Source: an uncultured Candidatus Saccharibacteria bacterium
GTDB lineage: Bacteria > Patescibacteriota > Minisyncoccia > Phycocordibacterales > DATDWN01
Reading direction: 5' to 3'
Assembly: GCA_964586695.1 (NCBI GenBank)
Contig: CAZPGQ010000003.1
Location: forward strand, 888 to 64,887
DNA length: 64,000 bases
Of the stretch, positions 26,711-35,552 are shown piece by piece. Each line of letters opens with the position of its first letter. Positions within the stretch are counted from its first letter, which is position 1. Position numbers and translations under genes: made by a program. Under the pieces are notes generated by a model. It was not told the DNA's origin, made no database searches, and saw only the letters and a program-made list of their open reading frames with translations.

Positions 26711-26983
26711 ATGAATAAAGCATCAATAGTAGACGCAGTTCACGCGAAACTAGGTGGTACAAAAGTTCAAGCAGAGGAAGTTGTAGATACAGTTATTGAT
26801 TCTATCGTTTCTACTCTTAAAAAGGGTGGCGAAGTTTCAATCGCGGGTCTAGGAATCTTCTCTACAAAGACTAGAGCTGCAAGACAAGCTCGAAATCCTC
26901 GAACAGGAGCTACTATCTCAGTACCTTCAATGAAGGTTCCAAAGTTCAGAGCAGCTAAGGCTTTGAAGGAAGCAGTGAAATAG
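26711..26983 (+). CDS. hup: DNA-binding protein HU
   Basis: Typical HU length and arm motif RNPRTGATISVPSMKVPKFRAAKALK. Confidence 0.85.
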   Translation: MNKASIVDAVHAKLGGTKVQAEEVVDTVIDSIVSTLKKGGEVSIAGLGIFSTKTRAARQARNPRTGATISVPSMKVPKFRAAKALKEAVK

Positions 26984-27157
26984 TCGCTTGGTCTTTTTTG
27001 CGAATTTCTTTGTTGTTCGTTACGTTTGCTCCACGCGCAGTATACTTATACAGCTTGGTCACAAGCCTCACTCACAACTTCGAACTTCATCAAAAAATCC
27101 TCAAGCTTGCGTTCTCTCGAGAGAATATCAAAAAAGAGCCTCATGGCTCTTTTTTGA

Positions 27158-27649
27158 TTATTTATACTTTTCTAACATTTCTAATGCTCTTTTCATTAGA
27201 TGATCTCCTATTTCTCCCCATTTAACATATTCTTTGTAATCTTGAGGGTCTATTAGTTTTATTTCCAAAATATCTCCATCAGGGTCTGACTCAAATTCCC
27301 CATACGGTTCAACAATAGCAACCATTCTAGCTTGTCTTGATAGTGTTTTTTCTTTTTCAAACCATACATCTTGATAACCTATATATTCCATAGACAAAAC
27401 TCTCATATTCGATTCTTCTTTAATTTCTCTTTCTGCAGCCTCAGTATACGTTTCTCCTTTTTCAATAGCCCCGCCAGGTGGAGTCCACTCACCTCTCCCA
27501 TTTTTTACAACAACCAATTTACCCTCACAAAAACAAAAACAGTGTACTCCATGCAAGGTAGATTCACCTAAGTTTTGGCCAGGATCTTCATCTTCATAAG
27601 TTACATGATATGTTTCTCCTCTATTTTCAATTTGAGTTTTTATTTGCAT
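27158..27649 (-). CDS. NUDIX hydrolase
   Basis: Nudix box GGAIEKGETYTEAAEREIKEESN. Confidence 0.8.
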   Translation of the reverse strand: MQIKTQIENRGETYHVTYEDEDPGQNLGESTLHGVHCFCFCEGKLVVVKNGRGEWTPPGGAIEKGETYTEAAEREIKEESNMRVLSMEYIGYQDVWFEKEKTLSRQARMVAIVEPYGEFESDPDGDILEIKLIDPQDYKEYVKWGEIGDHLMKRALEMLEKYK

Positions 27650-27675
27650 GTAAAAATACTAACATGATTAATATA

Positions 27676-27800
27676 TGCGGGATAGCGGATGTCTCACTTC
27701 TTGGAAACCGACGGTTTTCCAACGGAAGCAAAGCTTCCTGCCTTCCTGCACGGGAAACCAGACAGGTTTCCCGACCCCTTCCTTGGTTCGACTCCGCTCC
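27676..27800 (+). ncRNA. Candidate tRNA-like structured small RNA (unknown family)
   Basis: Putative promoter TTGCAT-18-TAATAT immediately upstream. An ~10 bp closing stem (gggatagcgga / tccgctccc) encloses three perfect hairpins (ggaaacc.., ggaagc aaa gcttcc, gggaaacc agaca ggtttccc) and a T-loop-like GGTTCGACTCC. It is followed by the terminator hairpin at 27811-27835. Confidence 0.3.
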
Positions 27801-27840
27801 CACAAAACAAAAAGCCCCCTAAAGGGCCTTTTGTGTTTTG

Positions 27841-27911
27841 TGCGGGATAGCGGAGTCGAACCGCTCTCCACAGTTTGGAAAACTGTTGTTTTACCGATAA
27901 ACTAATCCCGC
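27841..27911 (-). tRNA. tRNA-Gly (anticodon UCC)
   Basis: Manual cloverleaf of the minus-strand sequence GCGGGAT TA GTTT ATCGGTA AAAC A ACAGT TTTCCAA ACTGT GGAG AGCGG TTCGACT CCGCT ATCCCGC A. Confidence 0.8.
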
Positions 27912-27982
27912 AATACAAGCTATAGTATCAGAAAATAAATACTCTATCAAATTGTATTAGTGGCAAGTGATATAATACTGTT

Positions 27983-29083
27983 ATGTTTCTAAAAACCGCC
28001 ATTTCATTCATATTTGCTCATTTGCTTCTTTTAAGTGGAACAAACACCAAAGTTTATACTGCTCCAGATGTAAAACCTACGCAAAAAGCCAGTTCTACTA
28101 TTGCGATAATAGCTACAACAACAAAACCAATAATCAAAGTTGCAAAAACGTCTACTACAACTCCAAAAACAAAAGTGATACCAGTAAAAACTGTTTCTGA
28201 AACACCAAAAGTAGAAACTAAACCAGAACCAGCCCCAGACTTTGTTGCAATAAACGAATTTGCACGAAAAGCTACAGTAAATATTCTCTGTACAGCAAAA
28301 GGTGGTGAATTGTCCCCTATTTCTGGTACAGGTGCGATAGTTGGACCGAGCGGACTTATACTGACCAATGCACACATTGGACAATATCTGCTTTTGAGAA
28401 ACTATAGAGAAAAAGATTTTATCCAGTGTGTAGCAAGAACAGGTAGCCCCGCTTATCCAAAGTACAATATCGAATTAGTTTACATCTCCCCCACTTGGGT
28501 TTCGGAGAATAAAACCCAACTAAAGGACCAGAATCCACAAGGGACAGGAGAAAATGATTTTGCCTTTCTACGAATAACAGGAATGGTTGATGGATCAAAA
28601 ACTCCAGACAGTTTTCCTTTTGTGACTATGAATATCCGCGAAGCGATAAACGTGAATGAACCAGTTTTGCTTTCATCATATCCAGCTGGGTTCCTTGGTG
28701 GACTTTCTATACTTCAAAATTTAAATGTAACTACTGCTATTACAAACATACAGGACGTTTTTACATTTAAAGACGGAACTATAGATATAATCTCTGTTGG
28801 AGGCACAGTTGTGTCACAAAAAGGCTCTTCTGGCGGACTTGTAGTTGATAAAAATTCAACTCTTATTGGTGTTATATCAACTAGCTCAAATGGTGACACT
28901 ACAAGTAGTAGAGGCCTTAATGCCATTACTTTAGGTTACATAAATAGAGCAATACAAAAGGAGCTAGGCTTTGGATTTAAAGAATTTCTATCACAGACAC
29001 CGGAAAATTTTGCGAAAACATTTGCAAGTACTACAGCTCCCCTACTAACAAAAATAATTACAGACGAACTAAACAAACAATAG
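27983..29083 (+). CDS. Secreted trypsin-like (S1 family) serine peptidase with a Thr/Lys/Pro-rich linker
   Basis: Signal/TM N-terminus; catalytic His context ILTNAHIG and Ser context GSSGGLVVD. Confidence 0.65.
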   Translation: MFLKTAISFIFAHLLLLSGTNTKVYTAPDVKPTQKASSTIAIIATTTKPIIKVAKTSTTTPKTKVIPVKTVSETPKVETKPEPAPDFVAINEFARKATVNILCTAKGGELSPISGTGAIVGPSGLILTNAHIGQYLLLRNYREKDFIQCVARTGSPAYPKYNIELVYISPTWVSENKTQLKDQNPQGTGENDFAFLRITGMVDGSKTPDSFPFVTMNIREAINVNEPVLLSSYPAGFLGGLSILQNLNVTTAITNIQDVFTFKDGTIDIISVGGTVVSQKGSSGGLVVDKNSTLIGVISTSSNGDTTSSRGLNAITLGYINRAIQKELGFGFKEFLSQTPENFAKTFASTTAPLLTKIITDELNKQ

Positions 29084-29386
29084 TTATTTATTTGCAAACT
29101 CAGCAGAAATCTGGACTATCATATCAAAATTATCTTCTTTTACTGCCTTGTTAGGCTTTTCAAAACCACACTTAACACATTTGTGTTTGATAATATATTC
29201 TTTCCCCTTTTTCTCTATGCCAATAGGCTTCATAAAGCCTCCACAAGTGTTTAATCTATCTCCAGGGTTAATGTCTACATGTTTTGAATATAAACATTGT
29301 GGGCAATGATTTGTATATCCATCCCCTTCTACAGAAAAACCACAATGTTCACAAACAAAATCTTCAGTTTTACGGATAAATGTCAT
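29084..29386 (-). CDS. RNHCP domain zinc-ribbon protein
   Basis: CEHCGF...YTNHCPQCL...KCVKCGF: RNHCP motif and four Cys pairs. Confidence 0.55.
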   Translation of the reverse strand: MTFIRKTEDFVCEHCGFSVEGDGYTNHCPQCLYSKHVDINPGDRLNTCGGFMKPIGIEKKGKEYIIKHKCVKCGFEKPNKAVKEDNFDMIVQISAEFANK

Positions 29387-29387
29387 C

Positions 29388-29981
29388 TTACTTTTTAATG
29401 GCTATAAAATTCAGATAATTCTTATTATTAGGTCTGAATTCCTGAAAAAATACTTCTTCAAATCCAAATTTCAAAAATAATTCTCTTATTTCCTCCTTGG
29501 TATAAAAACTAAACCATCTTTCCATATTTATTCCAGAACTTTCTTTATATAGTTCTTTCTCTCCCTCTATCAAGCCTAGCCCCAAAACTCCCCCAGCATT
29601 CAAGACCCGCGATATTTCTTTAAAAGCAGATTCTACTTCTGATTTTGGAATGTGTAAAAGAGATGTATACGACCACACACCGCCAAAACTTCCATTTTCA
29701 AAAGGAAGATCAAGAAAATCCCCTTCTATAGCAACTAGTCCTCTTTCCTTTGCTATTTTAACCATTTCTGTAGAGGCATCTAGGCAAACAACATCAAGTC
29801 CACTATTTTTTAAAAGTAGTCCATCCCTACCAGGCCCAGCACCTATATCTAAAATTTTCCCAGAAACTAAATTCACAAAATTATCCAAAATACTTCTGGG
29901 AAATCTATCCCAGAAATCTACAGTTTCTTCATCATATTCCTTAGCCATCTTATTGTAAGTATTTATGGTTTTTATATCCAT
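29388..29981 (-). CDS. Class I SAM-dependent methyltransferase
   Basis: Motif I ILDIGAGPGRDG and an acidic motif II (VVCLDAS). Confidence 0.75.
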   Translation of the reverse strand: MDIKTINTYNKMAKEYDEETVDFWDRFPRSILDNFVNLVSGKILDIGAGPGRDGLLLKNSGLDVVCLDASTEMVKIAKERGLVAIEGDFLDLPFENGSFGGVWSYTSLLHIPKSEVESAFKEISRVLNAGGVLGLGLIEGEKELYKESSGINMERWFSFYTKEEIRELFLKFGFEEVFFQEFRPNNKNYLNFIAIKK

Positions 29982-30008
29982 TTCTTAAATACAATAAAGA
30001 TTAATCTG

Positions 30009-30081
30009 TCGGAGTGCTGGGATTCGAACCCAGAGTCGCCTGTTCCCAAAACAGGAATGTTAGCCGTTACACTACACTCCG
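30009..30081 (-). tRNA. tRNA-Pro (anticodon UGG)
   Basis: Minus strand CGGAGTG TA GTGT AACGGCTA ACAT T CCTGT TTTGGGA ACAGG CGACT CTGGG TTCGAAT CCCAG CACTCCG A. Confidence 0.8.
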
Positions 30082-30139
30082 AATACCGACAAATACAAGT
30101 AAGAGTCTAACATAAATAACTCAAATAACAAACAATATC

Positions 30140-30586
30140 CTAAAGAACAATGTCCTCTAACAAAAAGACACGACTTATTCTTTTGGACATATCTATATGG
30201 ACGGTAGCTATATCAAACTGCCAGTCTGTTTCATCTGAAACATCCCTTTCTAGCAGATATGACTGGATCGTCCTCCCCAGTCTCTGAAGCTTCCAAGGAT
30301 GGACATTATCCTCTGCTCTATAGGAATCGTTGGATGTTACATGTGTAACATCTGACAAAACCCTTGAAACAGCCTTTACTTCAATAAAGTGTAGCTGCTT
30401 ACCTTTCCTAGCTATAACATCTATCTCTCCCCACTTCTTCAGATAGTTTCTCTCTATAACCTTATAGCCATTACTTTCTAGCCATTTACAAGCAGAATCC
30501 TCCCCTATCTGGCCGATTTTTTGTTTCTCAGTTGGTTCCCTGGAGAAGTTCTTGTTATACATAACATAATTATATACTTGGAACAC
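30140..30586 (-). CDS. YraN/UPF0102 family endonuclease
   Basis: GEDSACKWLESNGYKVIERNY...GEIDVIA...LHFIEVKA matches the UPF0102 pattern. Confidence 0.65.
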   Translation of the reverse strand: MFQVYNYVMYNKNFSREPTEKQKIGQIGEDSACKWLESNGYKVIERNYLKKWGEIDVIARKGKQLHFIEVKAVSRVLSDVTHVTSNDSYRAEDNVHPWKLQRLGRTIQSYLLERDVSDETDWQFDIATVHIDMSKRISRVFLLEDIVL

Positions 30587-30778
30587 CAGAGTTACACATG
30601 TAACATATATCTATCATTTCACGTGAAACATTTTCTATTATTCTAAAAAACAGACATAAAATGGACATTTGTCTGTAAAAATACCCTTATTTAGAGCCAC
30701 ATCTCGGATAGATTTTGTAAAATGTCTTAAAAATTGTCAGTGGTCAAAGACCTGTCTTTAATACACATGTCCCCAGAC

Positions 30779-30797
30779 TTATCCACAGTTTTCCACA
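30779..30797 (+). promoter_or_regulatory. Tandem DnaA boxes (TTATCCACA and TTTTCCACA) outside oriC
   Basis: cttatccacagttttccacaaagg: a perfect consensus box plus a one-mismatch box, the same arrangement as in the dnaA-dnaN spacer. Confidence 0.4.
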
Positions 30798-30868
30798 AAG
30801 GACAGGGGATAAATAGGGTACTTTTAATTTTAAAAACTTTAGTATATGATGATATACGTTCAGTTATT

Positions 30869-30939
30869 GCGGGCATGGTTAAGTGGTATAACAGGTCCTT
30901 GCCAAGGACCAGTCGGGGTTTCGATTACCCCTGCCCGCA
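30869..30939 (+). tRNA. tRNA-Gly (anticodon GCC)
   Basis: GCGGGCA TG GTT AAGTGGTAT AAC A GGTCC TTGCCAA GGACC AGTC GGGGT TTCGATT ACCCC TGCCCGC A. Confidence 0.8.
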
Positions 30940-30991
30940 CAAAGAACATAGACAATAGTCTATAAAACTAGTATTGTATTAAAAGATTAAT

Positions 30992-31066
30992 GCACCCGTA
31001 GCTCAACGGATAGAGTACCGGTCTTCGGAACCGTGGATGTGGGTTCGATTCCTGCCGGGTGCACCA
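30992..31066 (+). tRNA. tRNA-Arg (anticodon UCG), CCA encoded
   Basis: GCACCCG TA GCTC AACGGATA GAGT A CCGGT CTTCGGA ACCGT GGAT GTGGG TTCGATT CCTGC CGGGTGC A CCA. One C-U mismatch at 27:43 and two GU pairs in the T stem. The acceptor resembles E. coli tRNA-Arg. Confidence 0.7.
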
Positions 31067-31212
31067 TTAATATAGCTATAAAACACGAAGTGTTTTGATC
31101 GTTGGCAGGAATCGAAGCCTGATTGAGATATTTTACGAGTTTACGAAGTAAAATATCCAATTGGGGTACTGATCCTGTAAGGATCGATTCCGTTAGTATA
31201 TAATTCACTTAC

Positions 31213-32679
31213 ATGAATTTTCCTATCCCAAAAGAGGTTTCATATGTAACAAAACAGCTAGAAAATGCAGGTTTTGAGGCTTTTGTCGTGGGTGGATGTG
31301 TAAGAGACCTTATTCTAAACAAGGCACCAAAAGACTGGGATGTAACAACAAATGCAACCCCAGAGCAGATTATCGCTTTATTTCCAAAAACTTTTTATGA
31401 AAACACCTTTGGAACTGTCGGCGTTGTGAACGAGGAAACTACTGAACCAACCTTAGTAGTAATCGAAGTCACTCCATACAGAATAGAAGGGGAGTATTCT
31501 GACAATCGACATCCAGATACTGTTATTTTTAGCCAAAAAATAGAGGATGATCTAAAAAGAAGAGACTTCACAATGAATTCTCTTGCTTATTCTGTATCAA
31601 AAAAAGAAATTATTGATTTATTTGATGGTGAGAGAGATATAAAAGACAAAGTAATTCGAACTGTAGGGGATTCTGTAAGCAGATTTAAGGAAGATGGACT
31701 CAGAATACTACGGGCTGTGCGTTTTTCTGCTGAACTTGGCTTCGAAATAGAAGCAGGGACTGAAAAAGCCATATTTGAAAACTCAGAACTACTGAAAAAT
31801 ATTTCTCTAGAGAGAATACGAGACGAATTTACAAAGATGATAATGTCGGCAAGGCCCATGGATGGCTTAATTGCAATGAAAAAAATGAGTCTTTTGTCGT
31901 ACATAATTCCTGAATTGAAAAATACTATAGGTGTAGAACAAAATAGGGCACACTCATACGATGTATGGGAGCATTTACTTAGATCTCTACAGGGAGCTGC
32001 AGATAAAAATTATCCTTTGGACCTGCGTTTAGCGGCTTTGTTGCACGATATTTCAAAACCAGAGTCACGAAGATGGGGAACAGAACAAAATACTTGGACT
32101 TTCTATGGACATGAAGTACTTGGAGCTCGTGTTGCAAAGAAAATTCTTACAAATTTAAAATATCCGACGAAAATAATAGAAAAAGTTACAAAAATGATTC
32201 GTTGGCATATGTTCTTTTCTGATACAGAGCAAATAACGCTCTCAGCGGTCCGTAGAATGATTGTAAATGTTGGACGAGAGAATATATGGGATTTGATGAA
32301 TCTACGCATATGCGACCGTATAGGGACTGGTAGACCCAAAGAAGACCCGTACCGCCTCCGAAAATATCATGCAATGATAGAAGAAGCTCTGCGAGACCCG
32401 ATTTCTGTAGGAATGTTAAAGATAGATGGTAAAAAAATAATGGATGTTACAGAAATTACTCCTGGACCACGCATTGGTTACACTCTACACGCACTCTTAG
32501 AGGAAGTTTTGGAAGATCCAAAGAAAAATACTGCAGAATATCTAGAAGAAAGAGCGAAAACTCTTGTAAATTTACCTATAGAGGAGCTGGAATCACTAGG
32601 AGAAAAGGGAAAACAGTCAAAAGAAGAAGCTGATGAGGAGCAAATAAAGAAAATCCGCTCTAGCCATCACGTTAAGTAA
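31213..32679 (+). CDS. cca: CCA-adding enzyme / tRNA nucleotidyltransferase with a C-terminal HD domain
   Basis: GGCVRDLIL...DWDV polymerase-beta head motif; HD domain (LLHDISK). Confidence 0.85.
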   Translation: MNFPIPKEVSYVTKQLENAGFEAFVVGGCVRDLILNKAPKDWDVTTNATPEQIIALFPKTFYENTFGTVGVVNEETTEPTLVVIEVTPYRIEGEYSDNRHPDTVIFSQKIEDDLKRRDFTMNSLAYSVSKKEIIDLFDGERDIKDKVIRTVGDSVSRFKEDGLRILRAVRFSAELGFEIEAGTEKAIFENSELLKNISLERIRDEFTKMIMSARPMDGLIAMKKMSLLSYIIPELKNTIGVEQNRAHSYDVWEHLLRSLQGAADKNYPLDLRLAALLHDISKPESRRWGTEQNTWTFYGHEVLGARVAKKILTNLKYPTKIIEKVTKMIRWHMFFSDTEQITLSAVRRMIVNVGRENIWDLMNLRICDRIGTGRPKEDPYRLRKYHAMIEEALRDPISVGMLKIDGKKIMDVTEITPGPRIGYTLHALLEEVLEDPKKNTAEYLEERAKTLVNLPIEELESLGEKGKQSKEEADEEQIKKIRSSHHVK

Positions 32680-32681
32680 AA

Positions 32682-32798
32682 CCTCAGATTTGAGTATAGT
32701 TCAAGGCGGAATGAAAAAATACGAGGAGCCTTACTTAGAGGTAAGGTGACGAGAATTTTTGAAATTCCAACGAAGAAATATGCCAAATCTGAGGTTTT
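32682..32798 (+). repeat. Copy B of the ~110 nt structured repeat element
   Basis: Same core as 9845-9917. It is flanked by cctcagatttg / caaatctgagg (a perfect 11-bp pair), with a U-tract on both strands. It lies immediately after the cca stop codon. Confidence 0.5.
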
Positions 32799-33304
32799 AC
32801 ATTTAAAAAACCGCCCAATGAGGATGATTCGTACGTTATCTTTGTACAAATACTCATCATTGAGCGGTTCGAGGGAAGAAGAGCTCTACAGTTAATGACG
32901 CAGTTAGTAAACAGCATCACGAATTTAAAATAAAATAGTAGATAAAGTGGGGATGTGTTGATTGTCCAACCACACATAACCAGAGAGTCTTCTTAAGAGA
33001 GGAGGTGCGCACCTCCTAAAGCACATATATTTAAAGAACAACTGAGAAGTTCCATCAAACGCAGGGTTTATTGCATTAAATTTCAAATCTCGATCTGCCA
33101 TTCATTGTATGTTTTTTAAAAAGACAAGTAAAGGACAGTAAAAGACAAATGTGTGGATAACTTTGTAAAACAACTAAAATTACCCCATCTACGTTGTTAG
33201 ACTTCAGTAAAATAATCCTCACTTTATATTTATAAAGCTCGAATTATTTTCCTTGTCTGCCTAGTATCTGAGGCAATTTAATTTGTTTTACTAACAAGTG
33301 TCTT

Positions 33305-34102
33305 TTATAAATCAATATCTATCTGAACAGGGCAGTGGTCAGATCCCAAAACATCCTTATGGATTAAAGCTTTTTTGACTTTTCCTTCTAGTCTTTTGCT
33401 TACAAAAACATAGTCAATTCTCCAACCAACATTTCTCTCCCTCGCGTTTGCAAAATGACTCCACCAAGTATAGTGACCATTTCCTTTTGTAAAAATTCTA
33501 AATGTATCTACAAAATTTTCATCTATCATATTCTGTATTCCTTCTCTTTCTTCTTTTGTAAATCCTTTTTTACCAATATTATCTTTGGGTCTAGCGAGGT
33601 CATCTTCTGTATGTGCAACATTTAAATCACCACAAAATACAACTGGCTTCTTTTTGTCTAACTCTTTTACATATGACAGAAAAGCAGGGTCCCACTGTTT
33701 GTGACGGAGTCCTACTCTTGAAAGGTCGTCTTTTGCGTTTGGTGTATAGACTGTAACTATATAAAAATCATCATATTCTAGTGTGGTAACCCTACCTTCT
33801 GTGTTTGGATCACCGTAACCGTTCTCATCCCAGTCATATTTCTTCGTAATATTCTCTGGCAAACCCAATAATATAGAGAGGGGACTTTTCTTTGCGAATA
33901 TCGCAGTGCCACTATAGCCTTTTCTTTCTGCAGAGTTCCAATATTCACTATATTCTGGCAAATCTACTTCACTTTGGTCTTCCTGAGCTTTTGTCTCTTG
34001 CAGACAAAGCAAGTCTGGCTTGTATTTTTCTACAAACGGCACAAACAAACCTTTTTTATGAACTGCACGTATTCCGTTTACATTCCAAGATATTATTTTC
34101 AT
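33305..34102 (-). CDS. xth: Exodeoxyribonuclease III
   Basis: MKIISWNVNGIRA...LCLQETK...GDLNVAH...SDHCPV: the ExoIII/APE1 fold. Confidence 0.85.
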   Translation of the reverse strand: MKIISWNVNGIRAVHKKGLFVPFVEKYKPDLLCLQETKAQEDQSEVDLPEYSEYWNSAERKGYSGTAIFAKKSPLSILLGLPENITKKYDWDENGYGDPNTEGRVTTLEYDDFYIVTVYTPNAKDDLSRVGLRHKQWDPAFLSYVKELDKKKPVVFCGDLNVAHTEDDLARPKDNIGKKGFTKEEREGIQNMIDENFVDTFRIFTKGNGHYTWWSHFANARERNVGWRIDYVFVSKRLEGKVKKALIHKDVLGSDHCPVQIDIDL

Positions 34103-34167
34103 AAACAAAGTTTAACATAAAACGAATCGCCCGCACCTACAGCGTTGTAAGTGCGAGCGAATTAGAG

Positions 34168-34569
34168 CTAGTGTCGTTCGGTGAGTCGATTGAAAAACTC
34201 ACCGAGTGCGCGCTCGTACTCGGGTGAACCTCGACGGACGACTCTGAAGTGACGGCGAGCGAGTTCGATGACAGAAATCCGAATAGCCTCACCGGAGGTG
34301 TAAGCATTCGGGGAATACATGTTGACTCTGTCATTCTGGGTCTCCGGCTCCGGACCAACAACTACATAGACTTGTTCCCCAGAACTGACCAAGTCGCCCA
34401 GATGAACCGTCATCAGCTCCCTTTCGAACCCGGTGTGAAGTGAACCATGACCCATGTGAGCCTTGGCTTCTTCAGTATTGATTGAATCCACTCGTCTTAT
34501 TCCCGCAAGTAGCAGTGCAATAAGAATTACACCTGTACTCAATGCGAGGATTTTCTCTTTCCAATTCAT
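34168..34569 (-). CDS. GC-rich islet gene: membrane-anchored hypothetical protein
   Basis: aggagg RBS 7 nt upstream of the ATG; N-terminal TM LALSTGVILIALLLAGI. GC is visibly higher than the ~35% background, and a GC hairpin (34137-34167) follows the stop. Confidence 0.45.
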   Translation of the reverse strand: MNWKEKILALSTGVILIALLLAGIRRVDSINTEEAKAHMGHGSLHTGFERELMTVHLGDLVSSGEQVYVVVGPEPETQNDRVNMYSPNAYTSGEAIRISVIELARRHFRVVRRGSPEYERALGEFFNRLTERH

Positions 34570-34607
34570 GCTTGGCCTCCTGCCCTAGTTTGAAGTATGA
34601 AATATTT

Positions 34608-34628
34608 AATATATTTGTCAAATATATT
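34608..34628. other. Perfect 10-1-10 bp palindrome (AATATATTTG t CAAATATATT) abutting the recombinase stop codon; candidate recombination or operator site
   Basis: Read directly: both arms are exact reverse complements. It sits between the xerC-like stop (34629-34631) and the GC-rich gene. Confidence 0.4.
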
Positions 34629-35552
34629 TTATCCCTTCTTATGGAATTTCTTATGGACGTCGCGGAGATGTTTGTCCGTCACATGAGTATAAATCTGTGT
34701 AGTTATAATACTAGAGTGGCCTAACATAGCCTGAACTGAACGAATATCTGCTCCATTTGAAAGCAAATCTGTTGCAAATAGGTGACGCATTGTGTGGGGA
34801 GTAACTTTTTTTGAGATTCCCGCCTTTATTGCGTGCTTTTTTACAATTCTCTCTATGGACCGGTTATTTAGAAAACCATACTCTCTTGTAGTGTTTTTCT
34901 TAAAACTTTTTTCATCAGCTGGAGAAAAAAGTGCATTACTTATATCTTTTCTTACAGCTAAGTATTCTTTTACGGCCTTTCTTGCTCCGTCAGATATAAA
35001 AACCAGGCGAACCTTGCCACCTTTTCCTCTGACAGAAAGCTCGTCTGAGTTTAGATTTATATCGCGAGTTAGCGATCTTAACTCTGAAAGACGCAGTCCT
35101 GTAGAGAAAAACAACTCCAAAATAGCCTTGTCGCGCAAATCTCTTTCATCTTTACCACCTGGAGAAGCAATAAGCCGAGCCAGTTCTTCTTCTGTTATAA
35201 GATCAAGAGACCTTTCAGAAACTTTTGCTAGTTCTATCCTGTCTGCAGGCAAAGTCTTTATCTCTTGTCTTGCCATGTATTTGAGAAATGCTCTCAGGGC
35301 TATTAGATAATAGTTCTGTGTTTTTCGAGACAAAGTCTCACTATTATTCTTGTGTCCTGTGGGTTGTCTGTTGAGCCAAAGGCGAAATTGACGGACCAAA
35401 TCATCTTTTATATCCGCTGGGTTATCAGTTTTGATAAAATCGAGGAATCGGTTGAGGTATCGGTCGTAATTTTCGACGGTTTTGACAGAACGACCCTTTT
35501 CTATCTCTACATATTCCAAAAATTGTTGTTTTAAGCGCTTTAAAGATGCCAT
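34629..35552 (-). CDS. xerC: Tyrosine site-specific recombinase (XerC/XerD family)
   Basis: N-terminal SAM-like core-binding domain. Catalytic region GLRLSELRSL (the Arg), HTMRHLFAT (His-x-x-Arg), and GHSSIITTQIYTHV (His and the Tyr nucleophile). Confidence 0.8.
   Translation of the reverse strand: MASLKRLKQQFLEYVEIEKGRSVKTVENYDRYLNRFLDFIKTDNPADIKDDLVRQFRLWLNRQPTGHKNNSETLSRKTQNYYLIALRAFLKYMARQEIKTLPADRIELAKVSERSLDLITEEELARLIASPGGKDERDLRDKAILELFFSTGLRLSELRSLTRDINLNSDELSVRGKGGKVRLVFISDGARKAVKEYLAVRKDISNALFSPADEKSFKKNTTREYGFLNNRSIERIVKKHAIKAGISKKVTPHTMRHLFATDLLSNGADIRSVQAMLGHSSIITTQIYTHVTDKHLRDVHKKFHKKG

Follow-up and report, generated by a model that had tools for sequence, protein, structure and literature searches.

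What is the short structured segment that lies between a NUDIX hydrolase gene and the 3′ end of a glycine tRNA gene in the genome of an uncultured Candidatus Saccharibacteria bacterium? The DNA analysed is a contig stretch of 64,000 nucleotides (the window, with a G+C content of ~37%), in which the local gene order is HU (26711-26983, plus strand), NUDIX (27158-27649, minus strand), the segment, tRNA-Gly(UCC) (27841-27911, minus strand) and a protease (27983-29083, plus strand). Positions 27676-27840 are read here, as the interpretation towards which the evidence leans, as a miniature insertion cassette of ~165 bp, which encodes no protein, sits in the 3′ end of tRNA-Gly(UCC) and would be moved by an enzyme supplied in trans. 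Among the observations behind this reading are the architecture of the segment, its clean presence or absence among genomes with the same gene order, and the recurrence of its core at another tRNA gene, whose own 3′ end the arms there match. The parts of the locus, with the evidence for each in brackets, are as follows.

27158-27649, minus strand: NUDIX hydrolase gene, outside the element (Pfam NUDIX, E = 8.7e-14)
27676-27689, plus strand (reverse complement as written): X2, direct-repeat copy 2 of the tRNA 3′ end (repeats; position relative to the ancestral flank)
27701-27722, plus strand: core hairpin H1, TTGGAAACC-GAC-GGTTTTCCAA, 9 bp, with an invariant bulged T (alignment, covariation)
27724-27738, plus strand: hairpin H2, GGAAGC-AAA-GCTTCC (fold, alignment)
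27741-27747, plus strand: unpaired invariant CCTTCCT between the hairpins (invariant alignment columns)
27751-27773, plus strand: core hairpin H3, C-GGGAAACC / GGTTTCCC-G, with the loop AGACA (alignment, covariation)
27771-27775, plus strand: invariant CCGAC, overlapping the 3′ foot of H3 (invariant alignment columns)
27785-27803, plus strand: X′, inverted copy of the tRNA 3′ end, comprising T-loop, 3′ strand of the T-stem and a degenerate acceptor strand (repeat search)
27801-27842, no strand: terminator palindrome at the boundary of tRNA and element (inverted repeat search; sequence; terminators of relatives, with T-runs judged by eye)
27841-27854, minus strand: X1, direct-repeat copy 1, the last 14 nt of tRNA-Gly(UCC) (repeat search)
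27841-27911, minus strand: tRNA-Gly(UCC), the target gene (ARAGORN; Rfam tRNA, 65.4 bits)

The window contains exactly two copies of the 14-nt sequence TGCGGGATAGCGGA (27676-27689 and 27841-27854), against a chance expectation of 0.09 matches even when two mismatches are permitted, and the second copy reads, in reverse complement, as the final 14 nt of tRNA-Gly(UCC). An earlier note on this DNA had recognised this direct repeat, with the first copy placed one base off, and had also described the pairing of the segment's ends; that pairing, GGGA(TA)GCGGA with TCCGCTCCC, is present with a 2-nt bulge, and in it X2 pairs with X′ and closes the fold. What the note had taken for a T-loop-like sequence is more than that, as GGTTCGACTCCGCT (27785-27798) is a perfect 14-nt inverted copy (100% identity) of 27849-27862, the T-loop and T-stem of tRNA-Gly(UCC), a relationship that the note had missed; the CCCAC part of X′ carries a 2-nt deletion and one change. 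Of three hairpins described as perfect, those at 27724-27738 and 27752-27772 are so, whereas the one at 27701-27722 has 9 bp and one bulged T. The proposed terminator at 27811-27839, a G+C-rich hairpin followed by a T-run, is real and forms half of a longer palindrome (27801-27842), which has a T-run in both directions and a G+C core stem (27814-27817 with 27824-27827) with A/T runs on either side; a simple scan does not list it because its T-run is interrupted. With the terminator arms (27801-27820 and 27823-27842) included, the whole of 27785-27862 is a single long palindrome with the terminator loop at its centre. The segment folds to -53.2 kcal/mol on the plus strand (z = -5.4) and to -58.3 kcal/mol on the minus strand (z = -4.1).

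Related loci were drawn from genomes labelled Parcubacteria, Minisyncoccia, Paceibacterota and similar: orthologues of the protease led to ~20 more loci with the same gene order, and a palindrome-shaped pattern search of metagenomes returned L009, L011 and L012 together with one unrelated high-G+C match. At all occupied sites, read in tRNA sense, the tRNA ends in X and is followed by a terminator hairpin, X′, the structured core, X2 and the ancestral flank. X′ is 8-23 nt long, mostly perfect, begins 25-63 nt past the tRNA and is found in no empty site, X2 is 7-16 nt long and often degenerate (14 of 14 nt are kept in the window), and a hairpin stands at the terminator position in every occupied site. 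Empty tRNA-Gly(UCC) sites are found in L017/L018 and in L033, where the arrangement of HU, tRNA and protease is kept with no insert and no extra X, and where 13-15 nt separate the end of the tRNA from the HU terminator. When these sites are aligned with L013, which carries essentially the window's element and no NUDIX gene, the difference is a single clean block of ~165 bp, and X2 stands where the tRNA end lies in the empty sites; X2 is read here as the probable original end of the tRNA gene, displaced. Among related genomes the segment is thus a clean presence/absence insertion, and one of the alternatives that the earlier note had offered, a remnant or miniature integrated element, gains comparative support from the empty sites, from the position of the distal repeat and from the second tRNA target described below.

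The same comparison separates the element from the gene beside it. As L013 carries the element without NUDIX, gene and element are independent, and NUDIX is one of several unrelated genes that occupy this position and vary by genome; the interval between HU and the element holds NUDIX, an HD-domain/YfbR-like protein, DUF2784, proteins of unknown function or no gene at all. It is hardly credible that the segment is a 5′ leader or riboswitch on the minus strand controlling NUDIX. Such a role would suit its orientation, which is that of NUDIX, and its place past the tRNA terminator and upstream of the NUDIX start, and a gene in the same orientation follows the element in several loci; however, L013, L016 and L012 have the element with no downstream gene, the genes that follow it elsewhere are unrelated (HD-domain, DUF2784, unknown), and no riboswitch family is matched. 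The six closest NUDIX homologues (L001-L006, 58-69% identity) have neither tRNA nor element upstream, and NUDIX appears, from a reading of its upstream sequence, to have its own -10-like box 6 nt before the ATG. In L007, a NUDIX locus that is less closely related and keeps the gene order, tRNA-Gly(UCC) is followed by a terminator and a structured segment of another type (type B), nearly equal in length and different in sequence.

The window's core is not confined to tRNA-Gly(UCC), as it is also found behind tRNA-Gly(GCC) in four genomes (L013, L015, L017 and L030). Shared between the copies are H1, in the form GGAAACC-NNN-GGTTTTCC with the bulged T, the unpaired CCTTCCT, H3 and CCGAC. The arms at tRNA-Gly(GCC) copy the 3′ end of that tRNA, including its species-specific T-stems (TGCGGGTACCGGGA in L013; GGCAGGGG, paired with a CCCCC run, in L017), and in L023-L028, where the T-loop of tRNA-Gly(UCC) reads TTCGATT, the copy in the element likewise reads TTCGATT. 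The tRNA-Gly(GCC) site is empty in the window and in L024, and alignment again yields a single clean block. A covariance model (R1), built on 11 copies, gave 14 matches of 53-117 bits, all of them beside tRNA-Gly(UCC) or tRNA-Gly(GCC), and a single copy (27684-27805) in the 64-kb window.

In both core hairpins, base pairing is under selection. In an alignment of 11 sequences all pair cells of H1 and H3 (165/165, 100%) are standard pairs, 12 of them carry changes on both sides, none of 500 shuffles attains the covariation score, and pairing falls to 56-78% when the partners are slid by one column. H3 has five stem sequences across the relatives, all fully paired without a mismatch, with compensatory changes at 4 of 9 positions and one G:U at a fifth, and H1 is nearly invariant in all copies with one covarying pair (UA/GC/CG). 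The arms are far less constant than the core hairpins: their 5′ acceptor half is missing in L009 and L012, their 3′ half is degenerate in the window and in L013, and the T-loop copy is missing from short type-C members. H2 is specific to the window, as the segment of equal length in other type-A copies has no evident hairpin (judged by eye, not folded) and type-C copies lack this segment entirely.

These data bear on the idea that the segment is an inert scar, namely what decay has left, without function, of a larger island or of a tRNA-Gly gene duplicated in tandem or in inverted orientation. Arms that are derived from the tRNA and degenerate to differing extents would be expected of it, and the site is a hotspot, at which genes vary and another mobile element is present; H1 also resembles the anticodon arm of tRNA-Gly(UCC) (27875-27892), with which it matches at 15/18 positions. 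This likeness is probably coincidence, because the same H1 is present in copies behind tRNA-Gly(GCC), or else it may reflect very old ancestry. The core, however, has no detectable tRNA homology and is conserved although the neighbouring protease is only 57-75% identical across the genomes that carry it, and the covariation, with stems kept perfect by compensatory changes, disfavours a scar, which we regard as quite improbable.

Selection on pairing is also what a functional RNA would leave, and a tentative but real possibility is that the segment is a small RNA gene on the plus strand, C-rich and ~125 nt long, convergent with tRNA-Gly, sharing its terminator and with its ends clamped by the arms. 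The exposed CCUUCCU(C)C and GACCCCU would then pair with purine-rich targets, for example Shine-Dalgarno regions, and the insertion history would be secondary, the RNA and insertion readings not being mutually exclusive. The G+C content of the segment (0.56, against ~0.37 for the window), the covarying hairpins and the invariant unpaired C/U-rich stretches fit a small RNA, as do its few copies at a fixed genomic position and a fold z-score that is better on the plus strand in all 11 of 11 copies (-3.5 to -5.6, against -0.8 to -4.0 on the minus strand). The single G:U pair in H3 of L009 is tolerated on the plus strand only, although the lone wobble pair in the window's closing stem favours the opposite strand. 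Transcription is argued for by the copies at tRNA-Gly(GCC) in L015 and L017, which lie 16-24 nt past a co-oriented tRNA-Arg with no terminator between, so that they would be co-transcribed with it, and the window's terminator works in the plus direction; on the other side, the plus-sense T-run is weak in L012 and L011 (by eye), whereas the tRNA-sense T-run is good in every locus.

For such a small RNA no promoter is supported. The earlier note had proposed one upstream of the segment, but its elements (TTGCAT at 27644-27649 and TAATAT at 27669-27674) have a spacer of 19 nt, the NUDIX start codon on the opposite strand falls within TTGCAT (CAT at 27647-27649), the motif is missing from homologous loci, and a consensus scan reports no plus-strand promoter in the window. 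No promoter is conserved among the relatives, in which a terminator abuts the element at the place where the promoter had been put (in L012 and L013 this is the HU terminator, directly at the 5′ end). Decay of the arms has taken a different course in each genome, and at least four unrelated cores have the same architecture, which points to a common insertion process rather than to a common RNA function. Assignment of the strand by means of G:U pairs was tried and set aside, as informative pairs are too few and conflict between elements.

The unrelated cores are thus part of the case for insertion, and they reveal that inserts in tRNA tails have been turned over and nested, with different cores at the same site. 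Other core types share the layout and have no evident sequence similarity to the window's core. They are found at tRNA-Gly(UCC) in L007, L011, L031 and L021, and behind tRNA-Arg in the window and in L033. Type B, present in L007 and L011, has stems with compensatory changes between the two copies (by eye), and a type-D/F family is found in L021, L022 and L031, of which the L021/L022 copy may be related to the window's core, since the H1 hairpin and TCCCGACCC are retained. In each of L011, L016 and L023, what is left of an element of another type, a short piece that breaks off near the tip of its outermost hairpin, lies just past X2 of the resident element. Terminators and cores have also been shuffled, as L016 (type C) and L023 (type A) have a common terminator.

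The copy behind tRNA-Arg forms a second cassette within the window, at 31067-31195 on the plus strand, downstream of tRNA-Arg(TCG) (30992-31066), with a different core at 31096-31195. It consists of a terminator (AAAACACGAAGTGTTTT), an inverted T-arm copy that is exact over 13 nt (GGCAGGAATCGAA), the structured core and a degenerate direct copy (TCGATTCC), and folds in tRNA sense to -36.1 kcal/mol (z = -5.2). At the tRNA-Arg of L033 there is a close homologue of this cassette, with a direct copy of 13 nt. Relatives of the tRNA-Arg-type core lie inside a type-C element in L015 (2150-2245; …CCTTACAGG…GTACACC…) and, in opposite orientation, between the HU stop codon and terminator in L012 (2060-2140, inverted); this core family is therefore also found away from tRNA ends.

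The interval next to the element was compared between the window (26984-27840) and its equivalents in L007, L015, L019, L023 and L031. Any gene in this interval points the same way as the tRNA and begins directly after the displaced tRNA end, with the exception of a doubtful open reading frame on the opposite strand in L021/L022, which overlaps the element. The interval genes have no flanking tRNA remnants of the kind that mark a classical island, and the proposal that they are cargo of a larger att-flanked island was rejected, as no further tRNA remnants lie beyond them. In L030 (121-1793) a gene for a large serine recombinase of 553 aa (Resolvase, Recombinase and Zn_ribbon_recom domains) is convergent on tRNA-Gly(UCC) and overlaps its 3′ end, hence a different mobile element uses the same tRNA end; the L030 contig ends at this gene. 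A metagenome contig of high G+C content, L010, has inverted halves of a T-arm and acceptor (GGGGTTCGACTCCGCTCACCC…) between two protein genes at 419-512, in which ARAGORN detects no intact tRNA, and may hold an analogous structure in an unrelated organism.

Searches for a known family or a mobile source were made with several tools. Rfam, at gathering thresholds for the window and 10 related loci and at E up to 10 for the region, returned genuine tRNAs only: the tRNA model (RF00005) reports the neighbouring tRNA-Gly and nothing on either strand of 27676-27803 at E up to 10, and neither ARAGORN, which looks for genes of transfer-messenger RNA (tmRNA), nor Rfam finds a tmRNA. The earlier note, which had failed to draw a canonical cloverleaf by hand, is borne out by both programs, which place no tRNA, tmRNA or other family in the segment even at E up to 10, and the kinship with tRNA or tmRNA families that it had raised is not supported beyond the copied 3′-end arms. 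Weak microRNA and leader matches in Rfam merely follow the palindrome. Hammerhead and other small ribozymes, signal recognition particle RNA and the glycine riboswitch were dismissed, as no core motifs were seen by eye and Rfam gave no signal. Coding potential was likewise rejected, as indels between the copies are not multiples of three and no open reading frame is common to them, and no integrase lies inside the element, the 165 bp of which have no conserved open reading frame. Rfam release 15 has no entry for the element, and the searchable literature yielded no account of elements of this sort in Parcubacteria/Patescibacteria.

A phage or plasmid origin was also set aside: five of six pattern scans of viral contigs and the BLAST searches of phage and plasmid records were empty, and the sixth scan, with a loose H1 pattern, gave 104 matches, none with the rest of the core, which were taken as chance. 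Integron core sites (R″/R′; RYYYAAC / GTTRRRY) were not seen at the arms by eye, no formal attC model having been run, and no integron integrase is present among the 10 genes checked with Pfam (26711 to 35552), the only recombinase among which is Xer-like. Around the locus, the genes of the window are typical of Parcubacteria/Paceibacterota (RNase Y, HU, a trypsin-like protease, an RNHCP protein, the CCA-adding enzyme and a Xer-type recombinase). The two genes next to the element and its tRNA have -10-like boxes 6-7 nt before their ATG, namely TATAAT for the protease (27965-27985) and TGTTAGTAT, an extended -10-like sequence read 6 nt upstream of the ATG, for NUDIX (27649-27665, minus strand). 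No Shine-Dalgarno sequence is found at either start, and the protease pattern is repeated in related loci. The short distance of the boxes from the ATG and the missing Shine-Dalgarno sequences suggest that both mRNAs are leaderless.

For the insertion cassette, the following course of events is proposed. The cassette would enter through recombination in the 3′-terminal 14-22 nt of the tRNA gene, catalysed by an enzyme supplied in trans. To keep the tRNA functional, the inserted DNA would bring a terminator and a new tRNA 3′ end in place of the old one, together with X′ and the conserved core, in which H3 and H1 are joined by the unpaired CCTTCCT and CCGAC, and the original tRNA 3′ end would be left displaced as X2 at the end of the cassette. 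As single-stranded DNA or RNA, X′ and X2 would fold into a stem that mimics the duplex target, and H1 with its invariant bulge and the adjacent CCTTCCT would be the recognition module for the enzyme. Remnants distal to the current element are in the order expected if newcomers enter next to the tRNA, as in tycheposons. The attL/attR label, which the earlier note had given to the repeats, is an analogy and no demonstration, as there is no integrase or other gene inside the element.

Several points weigh against such a cassette. The comparison covers ~12 independent genomes, all of them metagenome-assembled. Neither an enzyme nor a circle or single-stranded form of the cassette was seen, searches of viral contigs and of phage and plasmid records turned up the element neither free nor circular nor borne by a phage, and no recombinase or transposase lies in or beside the element, the nearest being the Xer-like tyrosine recombinase at 34629-35552, 7 kb off. 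Unlike typical miniature transposable elements, it is present in only 1-2 copies in each genome region sampled. Ordinary integrase chemistry does not predict the inverted copy X′, whose match to the tRNA of its own species requires that X′ either undergo gene conversion within the palindrome or be made when the element inserts. As the older elements have been truncated and do not survive intact, simple serial integration cannot by itself account for the pattern. Finally, the strong conservation of the core also fits an RNA that benefits the host.

A more far-reaching version of the cassette reading takes the arms as guides that match the target, so that these would be protein-less cassettes of the Candidate Phyla Radiation (CPR) that home to the 3′ ends of particular tRNA genes. 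Once folded, whether in single-stranded DNA or in RNA, the arms would copy the target duplex or pair with it, and the bulged hairpin with CCTTCCT would recruit a host or trans-acting recombinase or an HUH-type nuclease. We consider this rather unlikely. It would explain why unrelated cores have a layout in common, from tRNA end, terminator and inverted copy to core and direct copy, and, if true, it would amount to a new programmable style of miniature mobile element.

To our knowledge, the mobile elements and non-coding RNAs of CPR bacteria, which have tiny genomes, are little characterised. The present data indicate active turnover at the tails of CPR tRNA genes through minute structured cassettes that hold no gene; these belong to several families, and in one of them the conservation of the core is so tight that a function is implied. 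If mobile, the cassette would be a minimal site-specific insertion unit that restores its target and brings its own terminator, with target-copying arms that suggest an unusual choice of target; if the core is an RNA, it would represent a new conserved class of small RNAs in a poorly studied bacterial branch. Whichever reading holds, the covariance model offers a handle for surveying thousands of genomes.

Among known systems, RNAs with tRNA-like parts (tmRNA and YrlA) resemble the element in the T-loop sequence and in a helix identical to a stacked acceptor and T-stem, but there is no match to them at E up to 10 or in ARAGORN, the T-loop copy is missing in type C and the acceptor halves are unconserved. 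RsaE/RoxS are C-rich regulatory small RNAs, and compact hairpins, exposed C/U-rich stretches able to pair with Shine-Dalgarno-like sequences and a 3′ terminator are common to them and to the element, which differs in having no sequence or Rfam similarity to them and no conserved promoter. MITEs (miniature inverted-repeat transposable elements), REP/BIME, Correia and RPE elements are miniature inverted-repeat or palindromic elements that can carry terminators. Like them, the element is a small non-coding sequence rich in hairpins, which ends in inverted repeats and is flanked by direct repeats; in contrast to them, it is not dispersed (1 copy in 64 kb), every copy is linked to a tRNA gene, and the terminal repeats copy the local target instead of a fixed transposase site.

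Closer parallels are found among recombination sites and islands. The attC sites of integrons and the hairpin attP of CTX phage are folded single-strand recombination sites, which resemble the element in length (60-140 nt), in structure being kept over sequence, in an inverted-repeat stem that mimics the duplex target, in an invariant extrahelical base and in proximal insertion. The target here is a tRNA end instead of attI or dif, and single-stranded intermediates are purely inferred. Islands at tRNA 3′ ends (P4-type islands, tycheposons and integrase-less derivatives that are mobilisable in cis) share with the element the direct-repeat flanks, the restoration of the tRNA by the element's copy, empty sites in relatives and several elements per tRNA, with newer ones proximal to the tRNA and remnants distal. 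In tycheposons newer elements adjoin the tRNA and older ones are pushed outward. The insert described here differs in its size (~165 bp), in having no integrase or other gene, in an inverted target copy beside the terminator, in its structured core and in older elements that are truncated at the hairpin apex and not intact. Three of these features exceed the model of a tRNA-targeting element, namely the absence of genes, the inverted copy of the target and the conserved two-hairpin core, and the element is placed here among the insertion elements of tRNA ends, as a new form with a conserved structured motif that is itself new.

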